Positions 1 to 57,407 of a stretch of 64,000 nucleotides of DNA are shown here, piece by piece. Source of the stretch: a virus (Duplodnaviria; Caudoviricetes); IMG/VR virus record IMGVR_UViG_3300028048_000110, positions 1 through 64,000 of that record. One strand, written 5' to 3'. Both the position numbers and the translations under genes were made by a program. Numbering within the stretch: the first letter of the stretch is position 1; each line of letters begins with the position of its first letter. Below the pieces are notes generated by a model, which ran no database searches, had not been told where the DNA came from, and worked only from the letters and a program-made list of their open reading frames with translations.

Positions 1-1
1 T

Positions 2-2053: not shown

Positions 2054-2078
2054 GAGCTTAGACAAGAAAAGAATAGAC

Positions 2079-3754: not shown

Positions 3755-3797
3755 TTGGATTTCTGAACTGAAGCCTAAGACTTGGTAAAATATTGCT

Positions 3798-4256: not shown

Positions 4257-4264
4257 GAAGAAGG

Positions 4265-4636: not shown

Positions 4637-4645
4637 GGCAAAGAG

Positions 4646-5386: not shown

Positions 5387-5413
5387 GACCTAAAAGCCTA
5401 AGATTTTGGTAGA

Positions 5414-5815: not shown

Positions 5816-5818
5816 GAA

Positions 5819-7069: not shown

Positions 7070-7135
7070 CTGCATAAGGCATGTTTAGATTCGCACGGCA
7101 CGTATTACAATAACACTAACTAGTAGAGGCACGCC

Positions 7136-8055: not shown

Positions 8056-8068
8056 GGAGGCTGAGAAG

Positions 8069-8488
8069 ATGGATGCAAAGAGCAAGAAGCTGTTAAAGAA
8101 GGTGCTACGAGCTGTTGGGCTAGTTCTTGACAAAAGCTGCAAGAAGTACTCAGCAAAGAGCTGGGACCCTAATGGAGAACTTCTGACAGTGAAGTCCTTG
8201 AAGTGCATTCGTGCAGAAGATGTTGAGAGCAAGAAGATGGCTGCAGCAGTGCACTTCATTGACAAAGACAGTGGAGACCTCTCTTGGAAGTTCTTTGCTG
8301 GAGCCTGGTATTTTGAAGATGAAGCCGAGATCATTGAGAAGCTTGGAGAGGCTAGAGAGTTCATGTGGCTAGATGATAGCAAGCTAGCAAACATCTCAAT
8401 TGCTGAAGATGTTTTGCGCTGGAATAACCCTCTCTTTGGGTGCAAGAGCCTTGAAGAGATGGCAATAAGGAGCGACTTAGATGCTTGA
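8069..8488 (+). CDS. Array protein (NPLFGCKSLEEMAIRSDL)
   Basis: 139 aa; full motif. Confidence 0.9.
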   Translation: MDAKSKKLLKKVLRAVGLVLDKSCKKYSAKSWDPNGELLTVKSLKCIRAEDVESKKMAAAVHFIDKDSGDLSWKFFAGAWYFEDEAEIIEKLGEAREFMWLDDSKLANISIAEDVLRWNNPLFGCKSLEEMAIRSDLDA

Positions 8489-8957
8489 CCGGTGCCTAAT
8501 GAAGAAGATCTATGACGCACTCTTTGGCAGGTTTGGTGCAGTAGAAGTCATGGTGCTAGACAGCTCTCCATGCACGAGCGAGCTTGAGTTCATTGTCATT
8601 CTCTACAACAGCAGTCGTGACTACAGTGAGTTTGGAAAGGATGTGTGGATTGGGCCTAGCAGGACATTGATGGCACAGCTTAGAGTAAAGATGCATGAAG
8701 ATGCCTTCAAAAGAGACCTTGGCCTCTTTTGCTCTGTGGAGCCAGCACACTGGTGGCAGCCAACATGTTGGTGGCACATCCTTCCAAGAGATGGCGCAGA
8801 TGAAGTCAAAGCTAGCATTGGAGAAGCAATAGTTGCTGCAGTCAAGCAGTGGGAGCCAAAGACAACATGGATCGCCAGTGGCAATGGCAAGGAACTGATA
8901 GCTATGGCAAGCTCACTTGAAGAGCTTCTAGTGCAAAGTGACTTGCGCAGTAGGTGA
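8481..8957 (+). CDS. Array protein (ASSLEELLVQSDL); paralogue of 6584-7069
   Basis: 158 aa. Confidence 0.85.
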   Translation: MLDRCLMKKIYDALFGRFGAVEVMVLDSSPCTSELEFIVILYNSSRDYSEFGKDVWIGPSRTLMAQLRVKMHEDAFKRDLGLFCSVEPAHWWQPTCWWHILPRDGADEVKASIGEAIVAAVKQWEPKTTWIASGNGKELIAMASSLEELLVQSDLRSR

Positions 8958-8970
8958 GAAAGGCAGAAAG

Positions 8971-9258
8971 ATGGACAAACTAGATGGAGAGAAGATAGAG
9001 CAGATGCTGAACTATCTTAAGTGGAAAACTGGCAAAGAGCTCTCACTCAAGGAGATCTTTGCGCTAGTCTACTTGGCAGACAGATACCATCTTAGAAAGT
9101 ATGGAATGACACTGATTAGAGGGCACTCTATTCCAGGTCCTGAAGGATACATGGCAGTTGATTCTTCTCTCCCTCCAATCAATCTTGATGTTGCTCACAG
9201 CTTGGGTCTGCACCCAGAAGACACAGAGAGGTTTCTCATCGAGCTAGACTTAGCATAA
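8971..9258 (+). CDS. Array protein with Panacea/SocA (DUF4065)-like N-terminal segment (DTERFLIELDLA)
   Basis: LVYLADRYHLRKYG resembles the DUF4065 KLLYFADRxHLxKYG motif; ATG at 8971 within track ORF 8938-9258. Confidence 0.6.
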   Translation: MDKLDGEKIEQMLNYLKWKTGKELSLKEIFALVYLADRYHLRKYGMTLIRGHSIPGPEGYMAVDSSLPPINLDVAHSLGLHPEDTERFLIELDLA

Positions 9259-9311
9259 GCTGCACATGCTTGTCGGTTTATCTAGTAGATAGGTGTGATA
9301 CTATAAAATCA

Positions 9312-9371
9312 TGGGCAAAGCACTGCTCAATAGCTGAGATGAAGATGCTACTTGATCTTAGAGGAGTGTGA
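9312..9371 (+). pseudogene. Orphan motif-only fragment (WAKHCSIAEMKMLLDLRGV*)
   Basis: Motif in frame with TGA at 9369-9371; no in-frame ATG upstream of the motif; a promoter at 9296-9304 overlies the frame. Confidence 0.55.
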
Positions 9372-9377
9372 AACCAC

Positions 9378-9782
9378 ATGGATGAGAAGATGAAAGACAA
9401 GATCATGGCTTGGCTTTTAGAGAGAAGTCATCTAGAGCCAAAGCTTTGGCTAAAGCCTAACTCTATGGACAGTCATTACTATGGGTTGACAACCGAATGG
9501 AAAGATGGCGGCAGATGGAAGACTGTTGAGGTCCAATTTTGGTCTACTGAGCCAAGAGGACACAACATATCTGTATTTGTCTTAGATGCTGATGGTGAGC
9601 AGGCGCTTAGCATATCTCTGCATGAAGGCTTAGATCTATTGATGACATCTGTGCAAAAGTCAAAAAGTCCAATATACTTAGCATATTTGGATGGCTCTGA
9701 AGTGAGCACAGTGTTCATTGACAACAAAGACAGCTATGAGAAGTTGGCAATTGAGTGTGATCTTCAAAGAGGAGAGAAGTAA
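9378..9782 (+). CDS. Array protein (DSYEKLAIECDL)
   Basis: 134 aa. Confidence 0.85.
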   Translation: MDEKMKDKIMAWLLERSHLEPKLWLKPNSMDSHYYGLTTEWKDGGRWKTVEVQFWSTEPRGHNISVFVLDADGEQALSISLHEGLDLLMTSVQKSKSPIYLAYLDGSEVSTVFIDNKDSYEKLAIECDLQRGEK

Positions 9783-9785
9783 TCT

Positions 9786-10145
9786 ATGGACAAAGCATGG
9801 CAGTTGTGCGTAGTTGATAGAGATGCTGTCGACTTAAGTAAAGCTCCAGAATTTGAGAAGATGCTTATGTCTGTGCAAGCGAAGTCACCATTTCCAAATG
9901 GCACGCCGGTGTTTGTTGTCACTTCAGAGCTTAAGTCATTCAAAAACTTAGCACAAGTGTATCAGACATTGACGTCTATTAGAAGATATGCTGTTATGAA
10001 TGGAATCTTGTTTTCATATGTGTGGATGCCAAAAGAGATGCACTATGGATGGATCATGCATGATCTATTAAGGCCAATTCTCACAGAAAGAGATGCGGTT
10101 GAGATGGAAGCAAAGTTTGGACTCAACTTAGAGGAGTTTGCATGA
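9786..10145 (+). CDS. Hypothetical protein with weak motif (DAVEMEAKFGL)
   Basis: 119 aa, in operon. Confidence 0.75.
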   Translation: MDKAWQLCVVDRDAVDLSKAPEFEKMLMSVQAKSPFPNGTPVFVVTSELKSFKNLAQVYQTLTSIRRYAVMNGILFSYVWMPKEMHYGWIMHDLLRPILTERDAVEMEAKFGLNLEEFA

Positions 10146-10564
10146 CATCTCTTGGCAAGAAGAGGCTATTGCACAGATGGATGGTAAGTCTTGGCATATA
10201 CTATGCAAAGATGCTCGAAACTAGAGAAGATGGCTTCTATGTGTTTGACTTGCTAGACAACAGCAAGACAAGCCATGCTGGATTCGGCTATGGCCCCACG
10301 CAGGACATTGCCATAGCATTCCACATAGAGAGCAGTGAGAAGCAAGCATGGAGCGCACAGCCTATGTCTATGCTTGACAATAGAGCACTAGCAGTCATGT
10401 CAACTTGCTTAGACAGGCAAGCATCATGGCAGACTATGTATGGGCCTATGTTTTTCTCTAGTGGTTTGCACACTCGAACAGCAATTGACCTAGCAGACTT
10501 CTCATGGGAGAAGTTGGCTGTCGACTTAGACTTAGCCGGTGAGATGGCAGTATGGACTGTGTAG
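10142..10564 (+). CDS. Array protein (FSWEKLAVDLDL); paralogue of 14189-14587
   Basis: 140 aa; shares DLLD..TS.AGF and FFSS.G with the 14189 ORF. Confidence 0.85.
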   Translation: MTSLGKKRLLHRWMVSLGIYYAKMLETREDGFYVFDLLDNSKTSHAGFGYGPTQDIAIAFHIESSEKQAWSAQPMSMLDNRALAVMSTCLDRQASWQTMYGPMFFSSGLHTRTAIDLADFSWEKLAVDLDLAGEMAVWTV

Positions 10565-10917
10565 ATCTAGAAGACTTGTGCAGTAGAGCTTTGAAGAAAC
10601 TTGGCTTAGAGCTTGTGCCAACAAAGAACAAAGATGGCACTGTTGCCTATTGGCAAATTGGCATCAAAAGACGTGGTCTCTTCCACCGCAACAGTTTTGT
10701 AGACTACAGCTGCGGTGGCAGCATGCTGTATGGCGCAATTGCTGCATCAATTGAAGAAGTTGCAAACATGCTGTTCAACTTGTATGACAAAGAGCTCAAT
10801 GCTCTGTACTGGAAGACATTCCATTGGATTGACAATGATGGAAACAGCAAGACTGCTGCAAACATATTTGCTGGAAAGAGCTTGTATGAAGCAGAGATAA
10901 TGCTAGACTTGGCATGA
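10552..10917 (+). CDS. Array protein (NIFAGKSLYEAEIMLDLA); paralogue of 14992-15351
   Basis: 121 aa. Confidence 0.85.
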   Translation: MDCVDLEDLCSRALKKLGLELVPTKNKDGTVAYWQIGIKRRGLFHRNSFVDYSCGGSMLYGAIAASIEEVANMLFNLYDKELNALYWKTFHWIDNDGNSKTAANIFAGKSLYEAEIMLDLA

Positions 10918-10959
10918 GGTGTTTATTCCAATGCACAGCAGTGATACAATGTTAATGTA

Positions 10960-11358
10960 ATGGACACTATAGATGAGACAAAAGGCAAGACATATCTCTT
11001 AGTTGGCTTGCATGGCTTCTTTGTCAGTGAGACTGATGAGATTGGCATTGACAAGCCAAATGACTTGGCATACATTGCACAGTCATTGAAGAGGATCTAC
11101 ACAGATGCAAGACCATTTGGGTTCATGCGCTTCTACAAGAGCAAAGATGGCAGCAAGCACTTCATTGACAAGGGGTGGATCTACATTGATGGCAAGCTCA
11201 AGACTAGAGAAGAGGTCCTTGTCCAGAATGATGTTGATGGAGAGCACAGCATCCTTGCATCAAACATGAAGACTAACAACATGGATGCTGTTGTCTTCTT
11301 CAGCAATGGCAAAGTGTATCCATTTGACTTAGAGAAAGACACTATGCTAGAGATGTAG
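10960..11358 (+). CDS. Hypothetical protein without the motif
   Basis: 132 aa; own promoter at 10942-10950; ends TAG-TGA. Confidence 0.8.
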   Translation: MDTIDETKGKTYLLVGLHGFFVSETDEIGIDKPNDLAYIAQSLKRIYTDARPFGFMRFYKSKDGSKHFIDKGWIYIDGKLKTREEVLVQNDVDGEHSILASNMKTNNMDAVVFFSNGKVYPFDLEKDTMLEM

Positions 11359-11660
11359 TGAGGAGCTTGTGCATGAAAAGAAGAATGGTGTTTGCAACAC
11401 ATGAGCCCGGTTCTGGCTTTGGTCCATTTGCTTATTCTGGTATCTTTCCAGATGACTTCTCTCTAGAGCTTGACCCTGAGACATGCACAATAACAGCCCT
11501 TGTCCACAAGTTCTTGACTTTGAAGGGAGGAGCATCAGAGCAGTTTCCATACCTTGTTGACCGAAGTGGAAAGAGAGTTGGCATCTACAACGAGTTGAAA
11601 GCAAAGAGCATTGCTGAGCTAGAGCTGCAGCTTGACCTGCGCAATCTTGTCTGGGAGTGA
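11358..11660 (+). CDS. Array protein (KSIAELELQLDL)
   Basis: 100 aa (ATG alternative at 11373). Confidence 0.8.
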   Translation: MRSLCMKRRMVFATHEPGSGFGPFAYSGIFPDDFSLELDPETCTITALVHKFLTLKGGASEQFPYLVDRSGKRVGIYNELKAKSIAELELQLDLRNLVWE

Positions 11661-11693
11661 AAAGAAGAAAGAAGAGAGCAAGGAGAAGCAAAG

Positions 11694-11756
11694 ATGAGTC
11701 CATTGTCAATAGCATTGATTGCTGTGGTTCTTTGGTTTTGGATATGTGATGACTAA
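11694..11756 (+). CDS. 20-aa hydrophobic micropeptide MSPLSIALIAVVLWFWICDD
   Basis: Long purine-rich leader with AGGAG; single TM-like segment; fills the intergenic gap. Confidence 0.5.
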   Translation: MSPLSIALIAVVLWFWICDD

Positions 11757-11780
11757 GATTCAGCACTAGCTACACAGCAG

Positions 11781-12206
11781 ATGGTGATGAAAACTAATAG
11801 CAAGATCAAAAAATGCAGTGGAAGCCTTATGCTAGATATTCTAGAGTGGTTTGGCTTTCGCTTGAAGCTTGCTTCTTATTCAAAGAGATGGCAGCTAGTT
11901 TGGAAGAGCAATGGCTATACTGTGTTCTTTGTCAGGAACTATGATGTCCCACCATTCAGAAGATATGAGAGTTGCTTCAGCTTAGAGACGAAGCCTAAGA
12001 AGTTGCTTAGCAACTGCTTTGCCAAGTTCTTAGGTGATGTTGAGATGTTTGAGCTTGAAACTGGTGATGAGACTGAGACAGACATCACATCCCTTGTTGG
12101 CCGGCTCAAGAATCCTCTCTTCGGATGCAAGAGCCTAGAAGAGATGAGAGTGAAGATTGACTTGCTAGGTGAGAACAAGGAGAAGGGAAGTCATGATGAC
12201 AGGTGA
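11781..12206 (+). CDS. Array protein (NPLFGCKSLEEMRVKIDLL)
   Basis: 141 aa; full motif. Confidence 0.9.
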   Translation: MVMKTNSKIKKCSGSLMLDILEWFGFRLKLASYSKRWQLVWKSNGYTVFFVRNYDVPPFRRYESCFSLETKPKKLLSNCFAKFLGDVEMFELETGDETETDITSLVGRLKNPLFGCKSLEEMRVKIDLLGENKEKGSHDDR

Positions 12207-12498
12207 CAAGCTTCTTCATGCTGGCATTGAGCGGCTTCTTGCACCTCTAGGGGTGGGACTCACATGGGCTGATGACACTTGGTGGCTCTGCAGCAAGCAA
12301 GACTCTAGCAAGCTTGCCAGTATGGAGTCAGTAGATGGGATAAGCATTGTAGGCTACAACAAGCTTGATGCACTACTTGATGAACTTTGCTCTGAGATTT
12401 CTGAGATCCTAGTAGATGACCACTCCGTGTTGAATCCATATCTTGGCTGCAAAAGTCTAGAAGAGATGCGAATAAGATGTGACTTGCTAGGTGCTTGA
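12193..12498 (+). CDS. Array protein (NPYLGCKSLEEMRIRCDLL)
   Basis: ATG at 12193 within track ORF 12169-12498. Confidence 0.9.
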   Translation: MMTGDKLLHAGIERLLAPLGVGLTWADDTWWLCSKQDSSKLASMESVDGISIVGYNKLDALLDELCSEISEILVDDHSVLNPYLGCKSLEEMRIRCDLLGA

Positions 12499-12510
12499 AA
12501 GGACTGCAAG

Positions 12511-12912
12511 ATGGACTGCACAGCTTGGACAGACAATCTAGGAAGCAAAGAAGCAGAGAGACTGCTCAAGAAGATAGGGCAGACTCTAGACTTTGAGTTG
12601 AAGCATGGTGAAGAATACTGGTTGTGGTATGAGACTACTAGATTGGTAGATGGTACGCATTTTGAGACTTCGGAAGCTGTGCGTTTTCCAAAAAGTTGTG
12701 GTGGACTTTGTGACTCTGCTTTTCTGAAGCCTAGTGGACTGCTGCAAGCTGTCTTGCAGACCCGCATCTTCAGAGTCACTGTGCATAGAGATTGCAAAAG
12801 ATGGCAAGAGAGCCACTTTGTCTTGAATCCTGTCTTCAATGTCAAGAGCCTAGAAGAGCTAGAGATCACCTTAGACTTGCTTGGAGAGAGGACTGCAAAG
12901 AATGGATGCTGA
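12511..12912 (+). CDS. Array protein (NPVFNVKSLEELEITLDLL)
   Basis: 133 aa. Confidence 0.9.
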   Translation: MDCTAWTDNLGSKEAERLLKKIGQTLDFELKHGEEYWLWYETTRLVDGTHFETSEAVRFPKSCGGLCDSAFLKPSGLLQAVLQTRIFRVTVHRDCKRWQESHFVLNPVFNVKSLEELEITLDLLGERTAKNGC

Positions 12913-13300
12913 AGACGCAAAGAAGAAGAGCAAGAACATGAGCAAGAAGAGTTTTGCTGTGGTTAGTTGGCAGCAAATCAAGAGAGCTTTGAAGCTGCTG
13001 TTTGCAAGAAAACTAGGAGCAGAGATACTTGAGATGCGGTTTATAGTCTCCTCATGGCCACCTAAATTTCCGAGCTTGATGGTGGTGTACGAAGATGAGG
13101 CTTGCAAAGAGAGCTGCTGCTCTCTACGGTGGACAGAAGACAAGACGTCTGTGCAAGTTGAGTCATGGCAGGATCTTGCTAGCACTCTAGAAGCTGGTGC
13201 TAGAGAAGGAAAGAGCTTTAGCGTAGGTCGAAAGACCGTGTTTGGTCCTGGAGACAGCATTGATAGCGCTTTAGTTGAAGCAGACTTGCTGTGTGGATGA
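12881..13300 (+). CDS. Array protein (DSIDSALVEADLL)
   Basis: 139 aa (likely start 12902). Confidence 0.8.
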   Translation: MERGLQRMDAEDAKKKSKNMSKKSFAVVSWQQIKRALKLLFARKLGAEILEMRFIVSSWPPKFPSLMVVYEDEACKESCCSLRWTEDKTSVQVESWQDLASTLEAGAREGKSFSVGRKTVFGPGDSIDSALVEADLLCG

Positions 13301-13316
13301 CAGAGAGGGAAGACAA

Positions 13317-13703
13317 ATGAATGACTTAGAGATGCTAGGAAGAAAAGTTGCTGGATCTGAGCCGCAAGCAAGGCAGTTAGTGCAAAGAGCTTTAGCAGTC
13401 TTAGGCTTTCGAGTTACCCATGATTCTTGGGGAATGTACATAGAGACAGTGGATGGAAAGCACGATGTCTTCTTTGCAGGTATGCCTGCCTTTTCATCAT
13501 CTTGGAGCAGTATTCTTGGGAAGCTAGTTGCTATAAGAGAGATTGGAGTAGAGACAACAAAAGAAGAATGGCCTTCAGACATAGAAGAAGACCGTGGAAG
13601 TGCAGACAGCAGCTTTAAGTGGACTAGCAATCCTTTCTTTGGGTGCAAGAGCTTTGAAGAGATCAGTGTGAAGCTTGACCTTATAGAAGAGAAGAGCATT
13701 TGA
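13317..13703 (+). CDS. Array protein (NPFFGCKSFEEISVKLDLI)
   Basis: ATG at 13317 within track ORF 13275-13703. Confidence 0.9.
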   Translation: MNDLEMLGRKVAGSEPQARQLVQRALAVLGFRVTHDSWGMYIETVDGKHDVFFAGMPAFSSSWSSILGKLVAIREIGVETTKEEWPSDIEEDRGSADSSFKWTSNPFFGCKSFEEISVKLDLIEEKSI

Positions 13704-13707
13704 GAAA

Positions 13708-14202
13708 ATGAACAGACTGACAAAGTACAGCATTCCAATCAAAAAGAAAGCAGCAATGCTTGACTGCATTCCAATCAAAAAGAAAGCGGCAATGCTTGAT
13801 TGGCTCTTTGGCCACAAGAAGATCATTGCCATAGTAGACACATCTGACTGCACGATGATGTTGTTCTGCCATGGCCAGTATCTTTGGAATGGCCAGGGAG
13901 AAACAATAAAGCTTCCAAATGCGATTTCACAACTAGAATGCTATTTTAGATGTGAAGGACTTATTAAGTACTACTATGTAGATTGCATAGTCAACGCAGT
14001 TGAATACAAAGCTAAGTGGCTAGATGCACTTCTTGAGCTGTCATTAAATGGATATCGAGTGATGCATGGATATGAAGTGCTTTTGCCAGCTAATGTCCAG
14101 ATGGAGAAGCTGCTCATAGACTTTGACCTTGCTCACCAAGATCACATCCCTTCAGGGTGTGATAGAGTTCACTTAGAAGGAGCAAGCAATGACAATGCAT
14201 GA
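13708..14202 (+). CDS. Array protein (VQMEKLLIDFDLA)
   Basis: 164 aa; contains a 36-nt tandem duplication. Confidence 0.85.
   Translation: MNRLTKYSIPIKKKAAMLDCIPIKKKAAMLDWLFGHKKIIAIVDTSDCTMMLFCHGQYLWNGQGETIKLPNAISQLECYFRCEGLIKYYYVDCIVNAVEYKAKWLDALLELSLNGYRVMHGYEVLLPANVQMEKLLIDFDLAHQDHIPSGCDRVHLEGASNDNA
13731..13802 (+). repeat. 36-nt tandem duplication (IPIKKKAAMLDC/W x2)
   Basis: cattccaatcaaaaagaaagc(a/g)gcaatgcttga(c/t)tg repeated head-to-tail with 2 mismatches. Confidence 0.95.
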
Positions 14203-14587
14203 AAAGACAAAGATATTAGTCAAGTGGATGAACAAGATAGGGGTGTTCTATGCTACACTGGACTTCATTGCTGAAGATGACTACTATACTATTGATCTTC
14301 TAGACAGCACTCGCACAAGCTATGCTGGATTCTGCTACTCTGGAAAGGGCACTCTAGTCGCATTCAAGATGCCATTCAGTGAGAAAGTTGCATCTTGGTT
14401 TCCGGATGTCACCATCAAGCAAGCAGCTAGAGAGATTGTGCAGACTCTTGATGACCAATCTAAGTGGTGCTTCGGTGATGGCGACATCTTCTTCTCATCA
14501 TCAGGTCCTGGAAGACTTTGGATAGACTTGCACAACTTCAGCTGGGAGCAAGTTGCTATTAACTTAGATCTATATAGAAGAGAATGA
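14189..14587 (+). CDS. Array protein (FSWEQVAINLDL)
   Basis: 132 aa; paralogue of 10142. Confidence 0.85.
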   Translation: MTMHEKTKILVKWMNKIGVFYATLDFIAEDDYYTIDLLDSTRTSYAGFCYSGKGTLVAFKMPFSEKVASWFPDVTIKQAAREIVQTLDDQSKWCFGDGDIFFSSSGPGRLWIDLHNFSWEQVAINLDLYRRE

Positions 14588-14588
14588 C

Positions 14589-15017
14589 ATGGTAAAAGTA
14601 AAGTTGAAGAGACCAAAGATGGAGCTTCTGTCTAGAGCACTAGACAAGATGAAGCTATGCCTTTCAGAAGTACGAGGTGATCTATATAGTGAAGATAAGA
14701 TTGACAGTCGTTGGCTATATCTAGTCCCAAAATGCTATGAACTAGAGGTCTCTTTGTGCAAGAAGATATGCTCTTTCAATGGAAAAAGGATTCTCAAAGA
14801 CTATTTCGTCCACGAGTGCTGTGGTTATTGCGGTGTCTTTCGAGGGACATCTGAGCAAGATGTCTTAGACAAGTTGTCAAGCATTGAAAAGCTGTTCTTT
14901 GAAGATCCAAGTGATCCAGATGCAACATGCACATTCAAGTCAATTGCATACCACAAGTCGCCAGAACAGCTAAAGATTGAGTTAGACTTAGATGGAGAAG
15001 ACAATGGACAGAGATGA
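14589..15017 (+). CDS. Array protein (KSPEQLKIELDL)
   Basis: 142 aa. Confidence 0.85.
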   Translation: MVKVKLKRPKMELLSRALDKMKLCLSEVRGDLYSEDKIDSRWLYLVPKCYELEVSLCKKICSFNGKRILKDYFVHECCGYCGVFRGTSEQDVLDKLSSIEKLFFEDPSDPDATCTFKSIAYHKSPEQLKIELDLDGEDNGQR

Positions 15018-15351
15018 GATGGAGACTGTCTGCACTAGAGCTCTTGCAAAGCTTGGCTTCAGGTTGATGCATGACACCGTTGGCAGCAGCTCTAGAGTCT
15101 ACCGCATCTTCTTTGACGACAACTCTGGCTTATTATATACCGTGTCATGCTTAGGGATGAACTTGGATTTCAAGAAGGAGTTTGCATCAATTGAAGACCT
15201 AGCATCATCAATGTTTGCAAGTCTAGATGGACAGCATGCACCATTGAGGACATTTGCGTACATGGTGTTTGGAGGTGACAGCTTTGTGGCAAATGACTGG
15301 TCATCAAAGACCATAGATGAAGCAGGAGTGCTGCTAGATATAGATAGTTAA
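14992..15351 (+). CDS. Array protein (KTIDEAGVLLDI)
   Basis: 119 aa; paralogue of 10552. Confidence 0.85.
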   Translation: MEKTMDRDEMETVCTRALAKLGFRLMHDTVGSSSRVYRIFFDDNSGLLYTVSCLGMNLDFKKEFASIEDLASSMFASLDGQHAPLRTFAYMVFGGDSFVANDWSSKTIDEAGVLLDIDS

Positions 15352-15367
15352 GTTTGGAAGTACGAAT

Positions 15368-15553
15368 ATGCAAGACTTTGCTTGGAACACATCACTGTTG
15401 GCAGAAGACAATAGTGAGAATGGTTGGCTAGAGCTGGCAAAAGCTTTGATGGAAAGTGCATCAATGGAAGAGTTCAACATCCGTAGAGACTTGCTCTCAC
15501 TAGATAGCATTGAGCAGAATGATGAAGATCCACAAGAGATGCCTTCTACTTGA
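15368..15553 (+). CDS. Minimal array protein (ASMEEFNIRRDLL)
   Basis: 61 aa. Confidence 0.65.
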   Translation: MQDFAWNTSLLAEDNSENGWLELAKALMESASMEEFNIRRDLLSLDSIEQNDEDPQEMPST

Positions 15554-15588
15554 GTTTAGTTCTTGAGACCATGGTGTACTATTGATAT

Positions 15589-16629
15589 ATGAAGTATGTA
15601 CAACCTAAGAGCTATGACTCTATAGATGCTTACAGCAGTGCAGACTATGTAGCTAAGCATGGATTCTTAGGGTGTGGATTTGATGGTGGCTATAGTGTTG
15701 CAGAAGCATTTATGGCAAAAGCGGCTGCATACAGCTGTCCACAGCTTGAGATTGATCTTGCTGTCAAAGGGATTGACATAGACAACATTTCAATTGAGAC
15801 ACTCTATGCTACACGCAGCTTAGACCATTGGTCTGTCAATGACATGTTTGAGAGAATCTTTGCGAAGTGTGTCTTCATGGGTTGGTTCTTCAATGGCTTC
15901 TTGAATGCATGTGCTGAGACAAAGTTCTTAGACAACTGGCTGTTGTCAGAGATTTTCATGTCAAATGTGCATGCCGGCAGCATTAGAGGGATGTGGGGCA
16001 TCATCTGCCACCATGAAAATGGGACAAAAGAGCCATATAGAAGTAGATTTAGAGCATTCATCAAGTCTTTAGACGACAGAGGGCTAGACTGGACAAAGAA
16101 GTATCTTGATCCTGACAATTTCTTTGGAAAAAAGAGAGGTGTATTGGCTATGAGCAGGCTTGAAGAAAAACAGATGCTTGATGCTGCTCTACAGAAATGC
16201 TGGAAGCTTGCAGCAAAGAAGATTCTTGATAAGGTCTGTGGACGTAAAATTGAGTCTATGTGTGTTGGATATGGATTAGATGTTGGATATGGACTAGGTT
16301 TTTACAATTCCGCAGTCATTGGAGATGCTGAGAACATATTCATATGCAATGTTGCATTCAGTTTTGGAGAAGCAAGGCGCATTATGATAGAGCCATCTAG
16401 ACACAATATGTCTAAACTGCACGCAATGGTTGATGTTGATGAGCTTGATGAGAATGAGTCAAAGTCAGTCATGCGAGCACTGTTCTATTCTAGCCGTCCA
16501 ATTGAACTCGTGAAGAACAGGTATGGAGCAACTGGAAAGTCAATTGCACCAAGCTCAATTCTAGATGCACTAGAGACAGTTGGCTTGTGTGCAGAAGAGC
16601 TGCTAGTGCAAAGTGACTTAAATAGATAG
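15589..16629 (+). CDS. Large array protein with C-terminal LCAEELLVQSDL and an internal motif-like YSCPQLEIDL
   Basis: 346 aa; ends in TAG, next TGA at 16675-16677. Confidence 0.85.
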   Translation: MKYVQPKSYDSIDAYSSADYVAKHGFLGCGFDGGYSVAEAFMAKAAAYSCPQLEIDLAVKGIDIDNISIETLYATRSLDHWSVNDMFERIFAKCVFMGWFFNGFLNACAETKFLDNWLLSEIFMSNVHAGSIRGMWGIICHHENGTKEPYRSRFRAFIKSLDDRGLDWTKKYLDPDNFFGKKRGVLAMSRLEEKQMLDAALQKCWKLAAKKILDKVCGRKIESMCVGYGLDVGYGLGFYNSAVIGDAENIFICNVAFSFGEARRIMIEPSRHNMSKLHAMVDVDELDENESKSVMRALFYSSRPIELVKNRYGATGKSIAPSSILDALETVGLCAEELLVQSDLNR

Positions 16630-16640
16630 AAGGAACAGCC

Positions 16641-17090
16641 ATGGTATACAAGTCAGAACTACTAGAGAACAACATGAAGAAAGACTTCAATGCTCGTATG
16701 GAGTTGTATCTCAACAGCAAGTCTATCCATGAGTATCTCGTTGAAAGAGACTTGAAAGGGCTCAACAAGTACAACTTCAAGCTATCTGATGAGTTTTTGT
16801 GGTGGTACATCTTGAAAGAAGAGTTTGGGATGTTTGTGCTAGGTGCATCACTAGCAGTAGTCTTAGGCATAGCTATTCCAGTGCTTCTCTACATCTGTGG
16901 ACTGTGGTGGGTATGGTCAATTGCTGTCGCTATAGTACTAGAGGCAATCGTGTCACTTTTCATTGTAGTTACGCTGAAGACAGTCAGCTGTCTCAGTGAA
17001 AAGCGTGTAGACTCACCAATAGACGGCAGCAGAGACTACTTTGCGCGTGTTGATGCCCAAATGTCATCAAAGCAGATGCCAAATGAGTAG
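16641..17090 (+). CDS. Membrane protein with N-terminal copy of the motif (KSIHEYLVERDL) and 2 TM helices
   Basis: 149 aa; two hydrophobic stretches. Confidence 0.8.
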   Translation: MVYKSELLENNMKKDFNARMELYLNSKSIHEYLVERDLKGLNKYNFKLSDEFLWWYILKEEFGMFVLGASLAVVLGIAIPVLLYICGLWWVWSIAVAIVLEAIVSLFIVVTLKTVSCLSEKRVDSPIDGSRDYFARVDAQMSSKQMPNE

Positions 17091-17592
17091 ACTAGTTGAA
17101 AGGCTTTTGAAGAAGCATGGTCTAGATGGAATCAGAATAGTCTTTTTTCTTGATCCATTCTCTAGCAGTAAGATAAAGTTGATGGCTGTGAAAGACAAAG
17201 ACAAAGCTACTATGTGGCAGACGAGATTTGACATACGGTGTGGAGCTGAGACAGATGAGATGCTGTGCAGCATATGGGAAGACTTAGTTGGCTCATGCTT
17301 AGACAGAATGGCTGTTTACCGCATAATTGACTTCACTCAAAAGATGTGGAAAGATCCACATTTTGCCAATGCAAGAGATGCCATTCTTGACATTGTAGAG
17401 AACAGGCTTCTAGAAGAATCTGCTGCTGGAAGAGCTATCAGTCTAGTTGATCAATTTGGAGACAATGTGCTGTTTGACCGTGCTGTATATGAGTTCATTG
17501 CTCCATTCAGCACAAGAGAGAGCTTGTCAATAGGCTTAGACTTAGAGGAGAGAGCAGATGTGGCCATTCAAGAGAGACAATGCCATAGTTGA
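17083..17592 (+). CDS. Array protein (STRESLSIGLDL)
   Basis: ATG at 17083 within track ORF 17041-17592. Confidence 0.8.
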   Translation: MSRLVERLLKKHGLDGIRIVFFLDPFSSSKIKLMAVKDKDKATMWQTRFDIRCGAETDEMLCSIWEDLVGSCLDRMAVYRIIDFTQKMWKDPHFANARDAILDIVENRLLEESAAGRAISLVDQFGDNVLFDRAVYEFIAPFSTRESLSIGLDLEERADVAIQERQCHS

Positions 17593-17953
17593 CAGCCGTC
17601 TTGTTGAGATGGCAAAGGTGTATGTTGACAGCAGAACACTTGAAGAGTTCTTTGTTGCTGTTGACTTGAAGATGCTGAAGCCGGTGTCGTGGTGGAAGTG
17701 GACTAACCCTTTTGTTGTTTTCCATGTGCTGAAGAGGAAGAAGGTGGGAAAGCTAGTCCAATTTGCATTTCCAACTATTGTATGTGGCATTGGCATTGCT
17801 AACATCATACTTAAAAGTCCTTTTGCCATTCTACTACTAGTCCAATGTGCAATGCTAGTCATGCAGTTTTGGATTGGCAGCAAAGAGATGGACGCTAGGC
17901 GAGCTATAAGCTATGTTGAGATAGAGAGGCTGAAAGAAAGACTAGGCATATGA
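17558..17953 (+). CDS. Membrane protein with N-terminal motif (RTLEEFFVAVDL) and 2 TM helices; paralogue of 16641
   Basis: 131 aa. Confidence 0.8.
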   Translation: MWPFKRDNAIVDSRLVEMAKVYVDSRTLEEFFVAVDLKMLKPVSWWKWTNPFVVFHVLKRKKVGKLVQFAFPTIVCGIGIANIILKSPFAILLLVQCAMLVMQFWIGSKEMDARRAISYVEIERLKERLGI

Positions 17954-17966
17954 CTGCATGAACTAC

Positions 17967-19283
17967 TCACACCTTAAAAGGTGTGATCTTCGTGGATCTA
18001 TGTCTCTCATAGCTCTTTGAGAATTTCTTCTCATAAGCTTCCAGAAACTCCTCACGCTTAAATTCCCTGCGTCCCACAGGTACTGAGAGTCTTTTTTCAA
18101 GAATCATCTCAACTAGCTAGACCATGTTCTTTGCAGCATGGATGTCTCTGTCTTCTTTGACTCCACATGTGCATTTGAATGTCCTTTGGGATGTCTTCAT
18201 ACTATGCGTCTTTCCACATTCCATACATATCTTTGTTGTAGGGATCATTTTGTCAAGGATAATGACATTGTCAAATGCAGTCATTAGCTTTGACTTGACT
18301 CTACCTAGTATAGAATGCTAGACTTTCTTTCCATGCCTAGTCTTGTGCCATCTAGCTAGTTGCTCATCTTGAATGATGACATTGTCATAAGGCTTGAGCT
18401 AAGCAAGGATTTTGTTGGCCAAGTCATTCTTTATGTTTGTCATCTTCTAGTACTATTGCCGTAGTAGTCTCTTTGTTCTTTCTCGATTGCTAGAGCCTTT
18501 CTTCTAGCGCTGCAGTTTCTACTGCAGTCTCTTCATATGCTCAGTTTCTCCAATCAAGACAGTCTGCTTTTCTCCATTGCTGTAAGTCAATGTTGTCTAG
18601 CAGCCAAAGTCTATGGCAATGTTCTTTCCATTGAAAGGTATCTTTGGAAGGTCTTCTTTGAAAGTGAATGTTGATATTGCAATGTAGTACCCTCTAGGAG
18701 TGTTCAGCAACTTAGCAGATGCAAGCTCAATTCTATTGTCATCTATGAACTGCTTTGCTCCAGAGACCATAACAGTTCCTGAGACTCCTTGGATCTTCAT
18801 CTTCTTCTTTGTGATGAACTTGTATGTGTTTCCATACTAACACAAGTTCAATGACTTGAGCTCATCAACAAACTTCAGCTCTCCATACTTCTGCTTCTTG
18901 CCTTTAACCAATGATATGATTGTCTTGAGGTTTGACTTCATCTCATCAACAACACCTTGCGCCATTTGTGATCCAATATATTGAAGCTGTCTTTGCTCAA
19001 TTGCTCCATTCTTTGTCTTCACATTCACTATGTCATGCTTGTGTGGACGAGTGCATTCAAATATGCTTTTGTTGTTATCTCTTGCCCATGCAATCCTGTC
19101 ATTCTTCAACCACTTTCCCTCAACAAACATCATCTTGAGCTATTCTTTTTGTCTTGTTGAGAGCTTTGACTAGTCAATCTTCACTTTGAAGACACGACAA
19201 ACTTGCTTAGAGCGTTTTGCTCTAGTCTTCTGCATTGACTCTTTTATCTTGAGCCGTTTCTCATCTGTGCATGCTTGTCTCAT
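17967..19283 (-). CDS. tnpB: TnpB RNA-guided nuclease, 438 aa with 11 in-frame TAG=Gln
   Basis: Hand translation: RuvC IAIDFG, IIQDE, Zn finger CMECG/CTCG, DRDIHAAKN; ends KITPFKV-TGA. Confidence 0.9.
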
Positions 19284-19374
19284 GTCTTCTAATCTTATTT
19301 ACTCTAGTCACGTTAAGATCGTGCATAAAAAAATGAAAAATGTGAAAGAATTAACGTCAAGAGTAAATAGAGTT

Positions 19375-19785
19375 ATGCATAAGTATGACTCATACAATCA
19401 TGTAAAGTTCTCTATAAAATACCACATCATATTGTCAGTGAAGTACCATAGAAGAATCTTGAATCCAATCATAGATGACTTGAAGAAGTCATTTGATAGA
19501 GCAGCAATTGACTAGCCATGGAAGATTGCCATAGTAGAGACTGATGCTTAGAAAGACCATCATGTCCATCTACTAGTCAAAGCACGTCCATCAATTGCCC
19601 CAAACTAGATTGTAGCTAGACTTAAGCAGTTCTCTACTTATGACTAGTGGAATAAAAACCGTAGCTATATGATAAAATATTTTTGGAATGGCGAGCACCA
19701 TTTGTGGACAAGAGGGTATTTTTGTTCTACTATAGGTGAAGTGAGTGAATAGAAGATACGACAATACATTGAAAGACAAGGATGA
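19375..19785 (+). CDS. tnpA: IS200-family Y1 transposase, 136 aa with 5 in-frame TAG=Gln
   Basis: KYHII..KY, HUH motif DHHVHLL, LWTRGYFCSTIG, catalytic YIERQG-TGA. Confidence 0.92.
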
Positions 19786-19862
19786 CTTCTGCAATTCATA
19801 TTACACCCTAAAGGATGTGATGTTTCTTGTAGAAGAAAATCTAAAGCTATAGAATTGAGTAT

Positions 19863-21317
19863 ATGGAGACGCAGCAGATGAAGTTGAGCTATGAGCAAGA
19901 AGGGTTCTTAGAGCTTGCTGAGAAAGGCAAGAACATCTTCTTGTCAGGCAATGCTGGAACTGGCAAGAGCACAGTCATCAAAGAGTTCATCAAGAAGACT
20001 GACAAGAATGTTGTTGTTGTTGCTCCAACTGGTGTTGCTGCTGTGAACATTGGTGGCCAGACAATCCACTCTTTCTTCTTGCTTCCACCAAGCTTGATGA
20101 CTCCTGACACAGTCAAAGACATACCATGGCGGAGAGTCAGAGACAAGATATCAAGAGTAGATGTCATTGTCATTGATGAGATATCAATGGTACGGAGTGA
20201 CATGCTTTGGGCAATTGACAGACGATGCAAAGAGTGCGCAAGAGGAGTCAACAAGAGCATCCCTTTTGGTGGCAAGCAAGTAGTTGCTTGTGGAGACTTC
20301 TTCCAGCTCCCTCCAGTTGTTGTAGACAAAGTAGAAGAAGACTGGCTTGAAGACAACTTTGGTGGAGAGTATGCATTTGAGACACAGATCTGGAAAGATG
20401 CCAACTTTGAGACCATTGTCTTGCGAGAGCCATTTAGGCAGAAAGGTGACAAGAAGTTCTTGGCACTCTTAGACAAAGTCAGAGCTGGAGACTTGGCTGC
20501 TGTTGTTGATGGTGCAACTAGAGATGTGCTTGGGACAATCAATGCTGAGTGTCCACAAGACAAAGTGATGGAGAAGTTCCCAATAAGGCTGTGCACAACA
20601 AACAAAGAAGCACAGATGGTGAACAATGAAGCAAGAGCAAAGATTGCTGCTCCACCAATCTACTTCAAAGCTGTTGTCAAAGGCAAGTTCAATGCGCCTG
20701 ACTACCCTACTGAAGCTGAGCTTGTGCTGAAAGCTGGATGCCGTGTGATGGTCCTCTGCAACAAGCATGACCCTAGCGGAGGGTTCTTCTATGTGAATGG
20801 CGACTGTGGAGAAGTCATAGACATAGTAGAGAACTATGACTTGTCAAAAGTCAAAGTCAAGTTTGACAACGGAAACACTTGTTGGGTAGGGTGCAAAGAG
20901 TGGAAGAACATGAAGTATGTCCTTGAGACTGACCATCTCAGTGGACGGAAGATAGTGAGGCAAGAAGAGATTGGCTCATTTGTCCAAATGCCACTTAGGC
21001 TAGCCTACGCAACCACAATACACAAGTCTCAAGGGATGACACTTGAGTCAGTTGACCTACGTCTTGGCAATGGATGCTTTGCCCATGGCCAGCTCTACAC
21101 AGCATTGTCTCGAGCAAGAAGCCTGTCTGGCCTACGTCTTGAACGGCCAATTGACCCTGAAGACTTGATACTTGATGACAGAGTTGTTGCATTCTACAAG
21201 AGCCTAGAGAAGAAGCCACTTGACTTCTTAGATAGTCAATGTGAAAGTGTAGAAGTGCCTCTAGAGCACCTCGAGAAAGTGAAAGAGTACATAGCTCAGT
21301 TGTCTGGGCAGACTTAA
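19863..21317 (+). CDS. PIF1/Dda-like SF1B DNA helicase
   Basis: GNAGTGKS, DEISM, GDFFQLPPV, AYATTIHKSQGMTL, GQLYTALSRAR; no internal TAG. Confidence 0.92.
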   Translation: METQQMKLSYEQEGFLELAEKGKNIFLSGNAGTGKSTVIKEFIKKTDKNVVVVAPTGVAAVNIGGQTIHSFFLLPPSLMTPDTVKDIPWRRVRDKISRVDVIVIDEISMVRSDMLWAIDRRCKECARGVNKSIPFGGKQVVACGDFFQLPPVVVDKVEEDWLEDNFGGEYAFETQIWKDANFETIVLREPFRQKGDKKFLALLDKVRAGDLAAVVDGATRDVLGTINAECPQDKVMEKFPIRLCTTNKEAQMVNNEARAKIAAPPIYFKAVVKGKFNAPDYPTEAELVLKAGCRVMVLCNKHDPSGGFFYVNGDCGEVIDIVENYDLSKVKVKFDNGNTCWVGCKEWKNMKYVLETDHLSGRKIVRQEEIGSFVQMPLRLAYATTIHKSQGMTLESVDLRLGNGCFAHGQLYTALSRARSLSGLRLERPIDPEDLILDDRVVAFYKSLEKKPLDFLDSQCESVEVPLEHLEKVKEYIAQLSGQT

Positions 21318-21334
21318 GTAGAAAGAAGAGACAT

Positions 21335-21859
21335 ATGGATGGCATATTGACACCTGAAGATGAAGAGAGCTTGAAGAGAGTTCGTTGGACAGTCATTGAC
21401 TTAGTTGTCACTAAGGCAGCAACTGACTATGGTGAGCTGCCAAAAGCAGCATCGTCTATATCTGCAAATGCATACGCAATTGCAGCTGGAATCGCAGACA
21501 TGGACTCTAGCACAGTCCATAGTCAAGACACTGTAATTGAGCCACATGCCATATTGTTGAAACGGCTATTGAAGCCTATGTACCACTTCAAGGTCAATGA
21601 GCTCAGCAGACTAGACCCGTGGGACAGGAATCTTCCATATCCATCAGCAGACAAATTGATATTTGTTGACTTGACAGACAAGACTCTATGGGCAGCTGTA
21701 GACAAACCAAAGCCACTAGATGACTTCTATAGAGACCTTGTTGATGCTGAGCTGCACAAAGACAAGTTCATTGGCTTCACTGTAGACACAAATCCAAGCA
21801 CTAGTCTAGTTCCGCTGCTTGAGTTGAAGATGTCACTTGTTGATTGGTGGTGCAAGTGA
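21335..21859 (+). CDS. Hypothetical protein with motif-like end (NPSTSLVPLLELKMSL)
   Basis: 174 aa. Confidence 0.75.
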   Translation: MDGILTPEDEESLKRVRWTVIDLVVTKAATDYGELPKAASSISANAYAIAAGIADMDSSTVHSQDTVIEPHAILLKRLLKPMYHFKVNELSRLDPWDRNLPYPSADKLIFVDLTDKTLWAAVDKPKPLDDFYRDLVDAELHKDKFIGFTVDTNPSTSLVPLLELKMSLVDWWCK

Positions 21860-22251
21860 AGTATGGGCGGATAGAGCTAGCTGAGTCAACAGCTTTCAGC
21901 CACAGTGGCAGAGACTGCCCTCTGAAAGTCCTTTGGCAGTCTCTCTACAAATCGCATTCATATGAAGAGTTCTGCATGCTGTGCGACATCAACCAAGAGC
22001 CAAATGCTCCAATGACTCTTGGAGCAATTCAAGGGTTCATCTACGAGTACTCATGCGGAGGAGCTAGAACCGCAACTTCTCGTATTCGACTGAGAGAATA
22101 TCGTGATAGGTTGATCTTAGAGAGGTTTAGAAGAGGAGAGGTCAGTTGCTTTGACAGCATACAGCATATGCTTGAACCAGAAGAAATAGAGTCTGGAAGA
22201 AAAGCGTATGACAAATGGTGGAAAGAGCTGAAAGAGAAGACAAGAATATGA
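21844..22251 (+). CDS. Hypothetical protein with internal motif-like SHSYEEFCMLCDI
   Basis: 135 aa. Confidence 0.75.
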   Translation: MVVQVKYGRIELAESTAFSHSGRDCPLKVLWQSLYKSHSYEEFCMLCDINQEPNAPMTLGAIQGFIYEYSCGGARTATSRIRLREYRDRLILERFRRGEVSCFDSIQHMLEPEEIESGRKAYDKWWKELKEKTRI

Positions 22252-22592
22252 AGACAGGTATTGAAAAGAGAATTGAGACTATGGACAAAGACAACAGCAA
22301 GAAGACAAAGGTGCACATCTGTGCGCACTATGAATATGAGTATGATGACCTTGGAAAGTACAGTTGGTGCCATTCAAAGAAGATGCACTGCCGAGAGTGC
22401 CCATTTGAGAGTGTATATGCACAGGTTGTCTGCCCTGGATATGAGAAAGGAGAGTATCGAGGAGAATGGGAGATAAGAGATTGGGAGAAGAAAGAGGCAG
22501 AAGACTTTCTGCACAAGCTTGCCGCAGAGCAGAAAGACATAGAAGAAGCTGAAAGAGCACTGTATGAGCAATTGAAGAAGAAGTATGGATGA
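22248..22592 (+). CDS. Cys/His-rich hypothetical protein
   Basis: ATG at 22248 overlaps previous stop; CxH, CxxC. Confidence 0.75.
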   Translation: MKTGIEKRIETMDKDNSKKTKVHICAHYEYEYDDLGKYSWCHSKKMHCRECPFESVYAQVVCPGYEKGEYRGEWEIRDWEKKEAEDFLHKLAAEQKDIEEAERALYEQLKKKYG

Positions 22593-22622
22593 TGCTTTGG
22601 CATCTCTACAGCACCTAATGCA

Positions 22623-55975: not shown

Positions 55976-57407
55976 GTGAACTAGTCACACCCTAAATGGT
56001 GTGATCTTCAAGTGTTCTTCCTTGCATCTAGTGCAATCACTTGATTTTCTTGCTTCACAGTCGGCAGTTCCACATGCACAACTTGCATCATGCATGCCAG
56101 CGCTTCCAACTCCACAAGCGTTGATTCCCGACGTCCCATCGGTACTTTTCATAATGTCTCTCAAAGCAAAGTTCCTTATGTTGATTGCAGCATTCAAGTC
56201 TCTGTCAATCTTCATTCCACATTCTGGACACGCATATACTCGGGCATCTAATGGCATCTTCTGCTTATGCCCACAGCAATGACAGATCTGAGTAGAAGCT
56301 TCAAACCTTCCAATTTTCTTGAAGATCTTTCCTTCTCTCATTGCTTTGTAGCTTAGCATAGATGTGAACATGCTCCACCCCAAGTCTGAGATCTTTCTGC
56401 CCAAAGCTTTTTCATTCCTTGCAGACTCAAGTCTTCAATGCAGAAGTAGTCAAATTGGCTATCTTTGACTAGTCTTGTTGAAGTCTTGTGCAAGAAGTCT
56501 TTTCTTTGGTCAGCAATCTTTTGGTGTATCTTTGCTACTTTGATTCTTTGCTTCTCTTTGTTCTTGCTTCCTTTTGTCTTTTTGCTTAACTTCCTTTGCT
56601 CTTGTGCTAGCTTGTCTAGCATCTTCTTGAAATACTGTGGACTGTCAATGCTGTCTCCATTTGAGAATGTCATGAACGTCTTCAGTCCGAAGTCAATTCC
56701 CAACGAGTTCTCATAAAAGATCTTAGCATCGTCAATCATCTTCTTTAGCTCATCCTTTACATGGACAATGAATGACACATAGTATTGTCCAGAAGAATTC
56801 TTTGAGACTGTTGCAGTCCCTATCTTCCCTTTCTTGACTCGTCTTGAGATCTTTACTTTAATTCCATTCTTCCTTGAGAACTTTGGTATCTTGATCTTTG
56901 AGTCTTTGAAGTCAATCTGGAAATGTTGAGGGATCTCAAATGAGTCTTTGTCATACTTCTTTGACTTAAACTTTGGAAAGTTTGCTCTTCCAGCAAAGAA
57001 GTTGTTGAACGCTCTGTCAAGATGGCCAACTGCACATATAAGACTTTGGCTATTCACTTCATAAAGCCAAGGATTTGCTTCTTTAAGCTTCACGGTCTCT
57101 CCAGAACAATTCAATCCAATTGAGTTTAGGTACTTCTATTGGGATGCATACCTTTCTTGATTGAGATGAAGAGCCCAATTGTACATGAAGTGTGTACAAC
57201 CGAAGTGTTTAGCAAGAAGAACCTTCTGCTCATCTGTTGGATATATCCGGAATCTATATGTCTCAATCATTTGGTAATAGAGATATTGTACGTTTTACAG
57301 CTCTATTTACTCAAGACAAATCATAAACTTCACATGTATTTCATAGAAAATTCTAGGCAATTCATATCACACCCTAAAAGATGTGATGTTTCTTGCCTAA
57401 GTGCCAT
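55976..57407 (-). mobile_element. Non-autonomous IS200/IS605 (IS1341-like, tnpB only) element
   Basis: Both end hairpins are near-identical to those of element 17958-19840; no tnpA. Confidence 0.85.
55985..57270 (-). pseudogene. tnpB: TnpB with 1 TAG=Gln and a frameshift near 56400
   Basis: MIETYRFRIYPTDEQ HTH, GIDFGLK, CIEDL; frame changes at GMKKLW/GRKISDLGW; ASTQICHCCG, CPECG, DRDLNAAINI, KITPFRV. Confidence 0.85.

Follow-up and report, generated by a model that had tools for sequence, protein, structure and literature searches.

How can an insertion sequence live in a phage genome when neither of its two genes can be read in the standard genetic code? The question is raised by E1, an autonomous element of the IS200/IS605 group (IS605-type, with divergent tnpA and tnpB genes) that occupies positions 17958..19840 of the DNA analyzed here. 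This DNA, called the window below, comprises the first 64 kb (64,000 nucleotides) of the IMG/VR virus record IMGVR_UViG_3300028048_000110, whose length is 90,991 bp and which is only about 50% complete. A previous, sequence-only reading described E1 as an IS605 element domesticated to the phage, with a recoded transposase and a recoded nuclease under phage late promoters. We consider it likely that E1 is a selfish member of the IS200/IS605 group, active now or until recently, that comes from a recoded sub-lineage, is equipped with late-type phage promoters, and is confined to infections by phages that carry a suppressor tRNA. The description of E1 as a phage-restricted, late-gated selfish element is well supported, and we infer its timing, excision, and cleavage.

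The source of the window is a T4-like phage of lytic type from the bovine gut, present in bovine-gut metagenomes of several studies. Among the products encoded in the record are a gp15-like tail-sheath stabilizer, a RecA/UvsX-like protein, and a DnaB-like helicase, together with a PIF1 helicase, two tail-sheath proteins, an SMC/Rad50-like ATPase, and GroEL. The phage reads TAG as glutamine (code 15): the record contains one tRNA with the anticodon CUA (88935-89009 of the genome; ARAGORN, and Rfam tRNA at 31.8 bits), TAG falls on conserved Gln positions, and reading TAG as Gln restores the open reading frames (ORFs). In the late regions, the coverage by ORFs of at least 100 amino acids (aa) rises from 45-56% in the standard code to 96-97% with TAG as Gln, while the blocks 1-17950 and 19863-22600 are 94-100% covered already in the standard bacterial code (code 11). 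TAG accounts for 70% of the Gln codons of gp15 and for 49% and 26% of those of the two sheath genes, other genes falling within the same limits, and the virion genes carry up to 19 TAG codons; PIF1, DnaB, SMC, GroEL, and one 636-aa ORF contain none.

E1 is found inside the standard-code block, which looks early. In code 11, ORFs of at least 100 aa take up only 18% of its length, as compared to 99% with TAG as Gln; in its flanks they take up 94-100% without any recoding. E1 is thus a TAG-dependent island. Its parts are listed below, with related elements denoted by the handles of their contigs (L004 and so on), E2 being a second element in the window, and TAM standing for the transposon-associated motif of TnpB.

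17958..19840, minus strand (the top strand of E1 is the minus strand of the window): E1, its borders taken from an alignment that includes E2 and copies found on other contigs.
17938..17957, minus strand: DNA adjoining the right end on its 3' side, predicted by analogy with the TnpB proteins of ISDra2 and IS608 to be the guide segment of the omegaRNA.
17958..17961, minus strand: right-end cleavage tetranucleotide, TCAT in E1 and TCAC in 13 of 14 relatives (14 independent insertions).
17967..17986, minus strand: right-end subterminal hairpin (TCACACC / GGTGTGA), 7 of whose 8 pairs show compensatory changes when 8 elements are compared.
17967-19283, minus strand: tnpB, 438 aa, 11 in-frame TAG codons, stop codon TGA within the right-end hairpin; Pfam OrfB_IS605 (2.4e-9) and Cas12f1-like_TNB (1.6e-9).
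18040..18100, minus strand: conserved omegaRNA-like core, near-invariant at the DNA level.
18066-18080, minus strand: stem-loop CCUG UGGGACG CAGG in this core, with compensatory changes in 3 pairs.
19296-19304, minus strand: GAGTAAATA, 12 nucleotides (nt) before the ATG of tnpB, conserved in L004 and L005.
19308..19359, no strand assigned: intergenic inverted repeat TCACGTTAA / TTAACGTCA (arms at 19308-19316 and 19351-19359), from sequence inspection.
19361-19369, plus strand: GAGTAAATA, 5 nt before the ATG of tnpA.
19375-19785, plus strand: tnpA, 136 aa, 5 in-frame TAG codons; Pfam Y1_Tnp (1e-24).
19800..19821, minus strand: left-end subterminal hairpin, which covaries in L006 and L007.
19825-19822, minus strand: guide tetranucleotide AAAC beside the foot of the left hairpin, from the alignment of the ends.
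19841..19845, minus strand: target and predicted TAM, TTAG (TTTAG), immediately outside E1, at a distance of 19 nt from the foot of the left hairpin.

E1 and E2 were aligned with copies from other contigs (L004-L007, L061-L065, and L070-L074). The borders of E1, derived from 14 related insertions, agree to within a base with the ones proposed from the sequence alone. The left border directly follows TTAG (19844-19841, minus strand). On the right, E1 ends in AGTTCA plus one base, i.e., at 17959 or 17958. The right-end pattern consists of the hairpin, NN, and AGTTCA, followed by C in 13 of the 14 insertions and by T in E1, and the end lies most likely at 17958. In the manner of IS608, the tetranucleotide at this end would pair with GAAG at 17988-17991. 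The target lies at a constant place, TTAG (usually TTTAG) being located 18-20 nt 5' of the left hairpin foot in 10 insertions (E1, E2, L004, L005, L007, L062, L064, L071, L072, and L073). In L006, the one element with the guide AAAT, the flank has TTAA, such that the fourth position covaries with the guide. The two subterminal hairpins have the same orientation, lie on the same strand, and show compensatory changes; there are no terminal inverted repeats, and inspection of the E1 flanks revealed no target duplication. A blastn search of the E1 locus against GenBank phages gave no match, and an exact search of IMG/VR for the left-end pattern found none.

This anatomy corresponds closely to that of IS608, in which a TTAC target 19 nt from the hairpin foot is read by AAAG (PMC3201880). 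Like IS608 and IS605 of Helicobacter pylori, E1 combines a Y1 HUH transposase and TnpB with imperfect subterminal hairpins on one strand, lacks inverted terminal repeats and target duplication, and, as in IS608, has a 4-nt guide for a tetranucleotide target that lies 19 nt 5' of the left foot (TTAC/AAAG in IS608, TTAG/AAAC in E1); the divergent gene order is that of IS605. E1 differs from these elements in its target, TTAG, and in its proteins (TnpA ca. 35-40% and TnpB less than 30% identical), as well as in having genes that cannot be translated without recoding, promoter motifs of the phage late type, and a lytic-type, T4-like carrier.

With TAG translated as Gln, tnpA and tnpB are single intact ORFs, just as the sequence-only reading had it, and match the Pfam domains given above. 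Read in the standard code, both are fragmented: tnpA meets its first TAG at codon 47, tnpB at codon 38. Their translation does require TAG suppression, for which the phage has the tRNA-CUA. TAG constitutes 63% of the Gln codons in tnpA and 37% in tnpB. Alignment of TnpA with the structures 2ec2, 2f4f, and 2a6m (IS608 TnpA) places the HUH motif at H63-V64-H65 and the catalytic tyrosine at Y131. Standard-code gene callers do not see these proteins as such: the 90% cluster of the E1 TnpB (TnpB1) holds many 65-105-aa "proteins" that are pieces cut between the TAG codons.

The two genes of E1 are each preceded by GAGTAAATA, exactly where it had been described before. The window has 5 copies of this sequence where 0.45 would be expected, a number attained in none of 100 shuffles. 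It falls within a motif of the phage itself, RGTAAATA, of which there are 13 copies in the window (2.2 expected) and 21 in the record (2.8 expected). Nearly all of the copies are located sense-upstream of ORFs in two classes of spacing to the ATG, 0-12 nt and 33-44 nt, the shorter of which implies leaderless or near-leaderless late mRNAs. The motif precedes both tail-sheath genes and the gp15-like gene, and in the first 22.6 kb, the TAG-free standard-code block, its only copies are the two inside E1. The late promoter of phage T4 is TATAAATA, a −10-only element, and by analogy RGTAAATA may be a −10 element of the T4-late type. Of the previous claim that the genes are under phage late promoters, the part concerning the phage's own over-represented motif and its association with the sheath and gp15 genes therefore stands, while the word "late" derives from the resemblance to T4 TATAAATA and from the virion genes downstream of the motif.

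The motif is retained ahead of the insertion-sequence genes in L004, L005, L007, and L061-L065, including the standard-code contigs L007 and L065, and it is also found ahead of neighboring phage genes on the contigs of these relatives; the family thus seems adapted to phages that share the signal. A sigma70 scan detected no sigma70-type site in the spacer between tnpA and tnpB, and none upstream of the tRNA-CUA. The TCACGTTAA / TTAACGTCA repeat, a possible operator or upstream promoter element, has one arm adjoining each GAGTAAATA box; it is kept in L004-L007 and absent from E2-type elements. Beyond the window, a AGTAAATA box is located 62 nt past the tRNA-CUA and is followed by a 363-aa gene with 7 TAG codons (89071-90208; tRNA and gene together are L009:13935-15208), a 50% identical homologue of which is present on the recoded contig L005.

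The timing could be misread, in that RGTAAATA would be a general promoter, translation, or RNA-processing signal, the proteins of E1 would be made whenever the suppressor tRNA is present, and the TAG load would reflect neutral drift without any gating. The spacing of the motif lends something to this alternative: 10 of the 21 copies are no more than 12 nt (0-12 nt) away from the ATG, closer than a −10 element would normally be found except with leaderless mRNAs. So does the occurrence of TAG in some non-structural genes, such as a ResIII/DEAD helicase with 9 TAG codons. However, the remaining copies are 33-44 nt upstream, which shows that the motif is not a ribosome-binding site. Apart from the copies within E1, the 22-kb TAG-free block does not contain it, it stands ahead of the sheath and gp15 genes, and the genes free of TAG are those of replication and chaperone functions. 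We regard a wrong timing as unlikely.

TnpB1 matches the TnpB structures 8iaz and 8exa in the Protein Data Bank (PDB). The RuvC-I and RuvC-III aspartates, D225 and D380, are present, with RuvC-III reading DRDIH, and the zinc ribbon (PF07282, 1.6e-9) has the pattern CxxC...CxC at 353-373. At RuvC-II, the canonical Glu is replaced by Gln (IIQDEQL), and the residues Q305-D306-E307 are invariant in 120 relatives of TnpB1 (codons at 18365-18373, minus strand), the canonical motif being E-D-L. With Q305 at this position, the nuclease activity of TnpB1 cannot be assumed. Family-wide RuvC-II rearrangements with an alternative Glu have been described and are thought to be active (PMC10691335), and E307, two residues along the same strand, would be the obvious candidate for a shifted catalytic Glu. 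TnpB1 resembles the rearranged clades of Altae-Tran 2023 (PMC10691335), some branches of which are enriched in viruses, in that the canonical Glu is lost family-wide and a nearby alternative Glu is conserved. It differs from the large clade described there, which has Glu replaced by Gly and supplies the Glu from a loop, in its Q-x-E arrangement on the same strand, and we assign it to no named branch.

Within the last ca. 150 nt of tnpB, a block is almost invariant even between elements with TnpB proteins of two types that share only 27-69% identity, and this block with its stem-loop is as would be expected of an omegaRNA scaffold. An Rfam scan of 17700-20000 with E up to 1 gave nothing. In ISDra2 and IS608, the guide of TnpB is the DNA just beyond the right end (PMC8612924). 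The agreement with the TnpB-omegaRNA systems of ISDra2 and Geobacillus (Karvelis 2021, PMC8612924; PDB 8exa and 8h1j) extends to the domain layout, the zinc ribbon, the RuvC-I and RuvC-III aspartates, the overlap of the 3' end of tnpB with a conserved, putatively structured region that reaches the right end, and the expected identity of the TAM with the transposon target. Unlike those proteins, TnpB1, known here from its sequence, has Gln for the RuvC-II Glu with an invariant Glu two residues later (QDE) and has DRDIH rather than DRDxN.

The ends of E1 recur elsewhere in the window, at 55977-56009 and 57357-57395 (91-95% identity), where they enclose a second element:

55976..57407, minus strand: E2, a non-autonomous, tnpB-only element that has no tnpA, from a self-search and the alignment of the ends.
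55985..57270, minus strand: tnpB2, with a canonical IEDL RuvC-II motif, 1 TAG codon, and helix-turn-helix, OrfB_IS605, and TNB domains (Pfam; tblastn against intact relatives).
57304..57312, minus strand: GAGTAAATA upstream of tnpB2, conserved in L061-L064.

A 1-nt deletion in a G run (56400-56402) splits tnpB2 into ORFs of 305 and 139 aa. Its intact relatives encode 427-428 aa and are 88-90% identical; those in other recoded contigs at this identity carry 8 TAG codons, and there is no TAG in a 70% identical relative from a contig of 406 kb. TnpB2 and TnpB1 are 27-43% identical. Because the ends of E1 and E2 are nearly the same, the TnpA of E1 could plausibly move E2. Many TnpB2 relatives at ca. 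61-65% identity are called as exactly 305 aa and have no TNB domain (P0155, P0173, P0178, P0183-P0187, P0194, and P0236). A programmed frameshift was considered for these and rejected, as the relatives run past the shift point of E2; their common length must have some other cause, perhaps a recoded stop codon in frame.

Members of the family are found at many sites. Syntenic relatives of the source phage hold E2-type elements at other positions (L071 and L073). On L071 (IMG/VR 3300028048_002566, 8.3 kb), where gp15, UvsX, and DnaB are 66-72% identical in DNA to those of the source phage, the E2-type element lies after DnaB and not between UvsX and DnaB, and the site that E2 takes in the window is unoccupied. 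For E1, four contigs (three in run X3 and one in X4) share the right end and diverge exactly at 17959, and L074 is a 90% copy with another flank. The predicted donor joint would have the left flank ending in ...CATATGACTGC or ...GCA followed directly by CTAAAGCTAT. Contigs of four bovine-gut runs contained no joint across E1, although excision that is rare would not be visible at the level of contigs. The PIF1 helicase was used to look for a syntenic relative lacking the insertion and gave only a 24% match.

These observations bear on the claim of domestication, according to which the phage would use TnpB (and TnpA), for example as an RNA-guided weapon against competitors or as a replication or recombination factor, with the promoters and the recoding as signs of integration into the phage program. 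The strong purifying selection on the genes, the phage-type promoter motif on both of them, and the presence of E1 at the same insertion site in contigs from three studies are all compatible with such a role. On the other hand, the two transposon ends, the guide and cleavage tetranucleotides, the target signature, and the transposase are all intact, the predicted guide is merely the adjacent flank, as in selfish elements, and the different flanks of the family members mean that their guides differ; moreover, the sister copy E2 is frameshifted. A family at many sites with an intact E1 and a decaying E2 is the behavior of a selfish element and not of an exaptation. We therefore do not retain the term "domesticated", and consider a function for the phage improbable.

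It is still less probable that E1 is a dead relic, in which the TAG codons would be real stops and tnpA and tnpB the pseudogenes of an old insertion. Both genes are indeed fragmented in the standard code, and decay does occur in the same genome, as seen for E2. Nevertheless, all 16 internal stops of tnpA and tnpB are TAG, with no TAA, TGA, or frameshift, and 6 of the 11 TAG codons of tnpB fall on columns with a Gln majority (relatives at most 69% identical), against a Gln background of 5%. When recoded copies are compared with one another, nonsynonymous relative to synonymous substitution (dN/dS) amounts to 0.02-0.12 in tnpB and to 0.20 in tnpA, and the record has both the tRNA-CUA and heavily TAG-bearing virion genes. 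Three of the TAG codons are common to E1, L004, and L005 and others are private to one copy, which indicates that TAG codons accrued both before and after these copies diverged.

As to the distribution of the element, TnpB1 has 638 database relatives. The copies at 83-91% identity whose contigs could be placed, L004 (81.7 kb) and L005 (51.7 kb), translate only with TAG as Gln and have the same divergent layout as E1 with different neighbors. L005 also carries a second Y1 transposase gene (139 aa; 21315-21317 onwards) ca. 10 kb from the first, such that more than one IS200/IS605 copy is present there. Relatives at 62-69% (L006 and L007) are in the standard code, on phage-like contigs of 230-290 kb with many small ORFs without a Pfam match and a few genes shared with the source phage; a PHROGs search with the neighbors of L006, L007, and L065 gave almost no matches. 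Among bacteria and archaea, represented by one genome per species (185,579 species) and searched with peptide patterns, no relative of TnpB1 exceeds 54% identity. The claim that E1 is phage-restricted, and the expectation that close copies are absent from host genomes, are thus supported within this set. GenBank phages match in 129 records for TnpB1 and 82 for TnpA, the best identities being 32% (Thermus phage phiLo) and 42% (Clostridium phage c-st), respectively. A quick maximum-likelihood tree groups the recoded copies together (SH-aLRT 100), nested in a larger clade of 35 rows (96) from which bacterial genomes are absent.

A recent acquisition from a host chromosome, which the abundance of IS200/IS605 in gut bacteria and the relatives at 40-54% in genomes of Synergistota, Spirochaetota, Bacillota, and Actinomycetota might suggest, is barely credible in view of this 54% ceiling, of a TAG share in E1 that matches the phage late genes, of the three TAG codons common with L004 and L005, which make the recoding older than their split, and of the nesting of the recoded copies among phage-like contigs in the tree.

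More distant TnpB relatives, at 40-48% identity, also contain 5-9 in-frame TAG codons and almost no other stops (L024:1-1248, L026:127-1344, and L056:3001-4191). L024 is a contig of a Sphaerochaetaceae metagenome-assembled genome, L026 a Bacillales UBA6331 contig, and L056 an IMG/VR contig with 9 TAG codons; probably all three are recoded-phage contigs, two of them binned into bacterial assemblies.

That IS200/IS605 elements occur in phages, that late genes may be recoded, and that the homing endonuclease of an Agate intron is recoded was already known. In the Agate phages, the endonuclease gene of a group I intron contains recoded stops, and the authors argue that its production is delayed until late infection (Borges et al., bioRxiv 10.1101/2021.08.26.457843). 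That case is similar to E1 in that the nuclease gene of a selfish element in a stop-recoded phage carries recoded stops, but there the code is TGA as Trp and the element an intron with a protein-guided endonuclease, whereas E1 has TAG as Gln and is a whole transposon with a transposase, TnpB, and its own late-type promoters. TnpB genes are also found in epsilon crAss-like phages (PMC11054128); the IS200/IS605 genes of these and of GenBank phages are phage-borne like E1, and none is reported as recoded with late promoters. A literature search combining TnpB, recoding, and phage gave no paper describing such an element. What is new here is the intact, autonomous, TAG-recoded element with late-type promoters on both genes.

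Several points weigh against the view of E1 as a live selfish element that is restricted to phages and gated late. Neither an empty site nor an excision junction was found in metagenome and viral contigs, with a search pattern that took the right end as 17959, and the occurrence of E1 at one site in studies X2 and X3 in addition to the present one may mean that it is fixed and currently quiet. The Gln at RuvC-II makes the predicted cleavage uncertain. The phage nature of L006 and L007 is presumed from their ORFan-rich content and only a few shared genes, and the search of bacterial genomes, which used peptide patterns, can miss copies. Finally, the presumed late timing depends on the association of the motif with virion genes and on the T4 analogy.

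Taken with these reservations, the history and life cycle of a selfish E1 may be pictured as follows. Its lineage would live in large gut and rumen phages, and one sub-lineage would have entered phages with TAG as Gln, where the genes of the element would have drifted toward late-gene codon usage; the TAG load is most simply understood as such a drift and need not be an evolved switch. RGTAAATA would drive both genes, and TnpA and TnpB would be made only where a phage with the suppressor tRNA has infected the cell, most likely at a late stage. The anatomy of the ends suggests that TnpA would excise the top strand and insert it 3' of TTAG by an IS608-type "peel and paste" mechanism. By analogy with known systems, TnpB with the right-end omegaRNA would cut TTAG-adjacent empty sites, and recombination after the cut would restore the element or spread it among replicating or co-infecting genomes. 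The recoding would act as a barrier, as a copy landing in a standard-code bacterium would be dead on arrival, and E2 would be a decaying passenger that the TnpA of E1 could move in trans. More tentatively, and with some doubt on our part, the code might serve as containment barrier and timer at once, making E1 a late-only, RNA-guided homing transposon that moves between co-infecting phages when single-stranded DNA and sister genomes are present and that mobilizes E2-like partners.

The covariation of TTAG/AAAC with TTAA/AAAT provides a ready prediction of target and TAM for the family. Since standard gene callers cut recoded TnpA and TnpB into fragments of ca. 100 aa, a pool of variants, including the QDE type of RuvC-II, is hidden from surveys. 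E1 shows that a complete transposon, and not only structural or lysis genes, can depend on an alternative genetic code, and it represents a lineage of mobile DNA that is unable to function in standard-code bacteria. It thereby offers a natural test case for the code-based isolation of mobile elements and for the temporal control of single-strand transposition.

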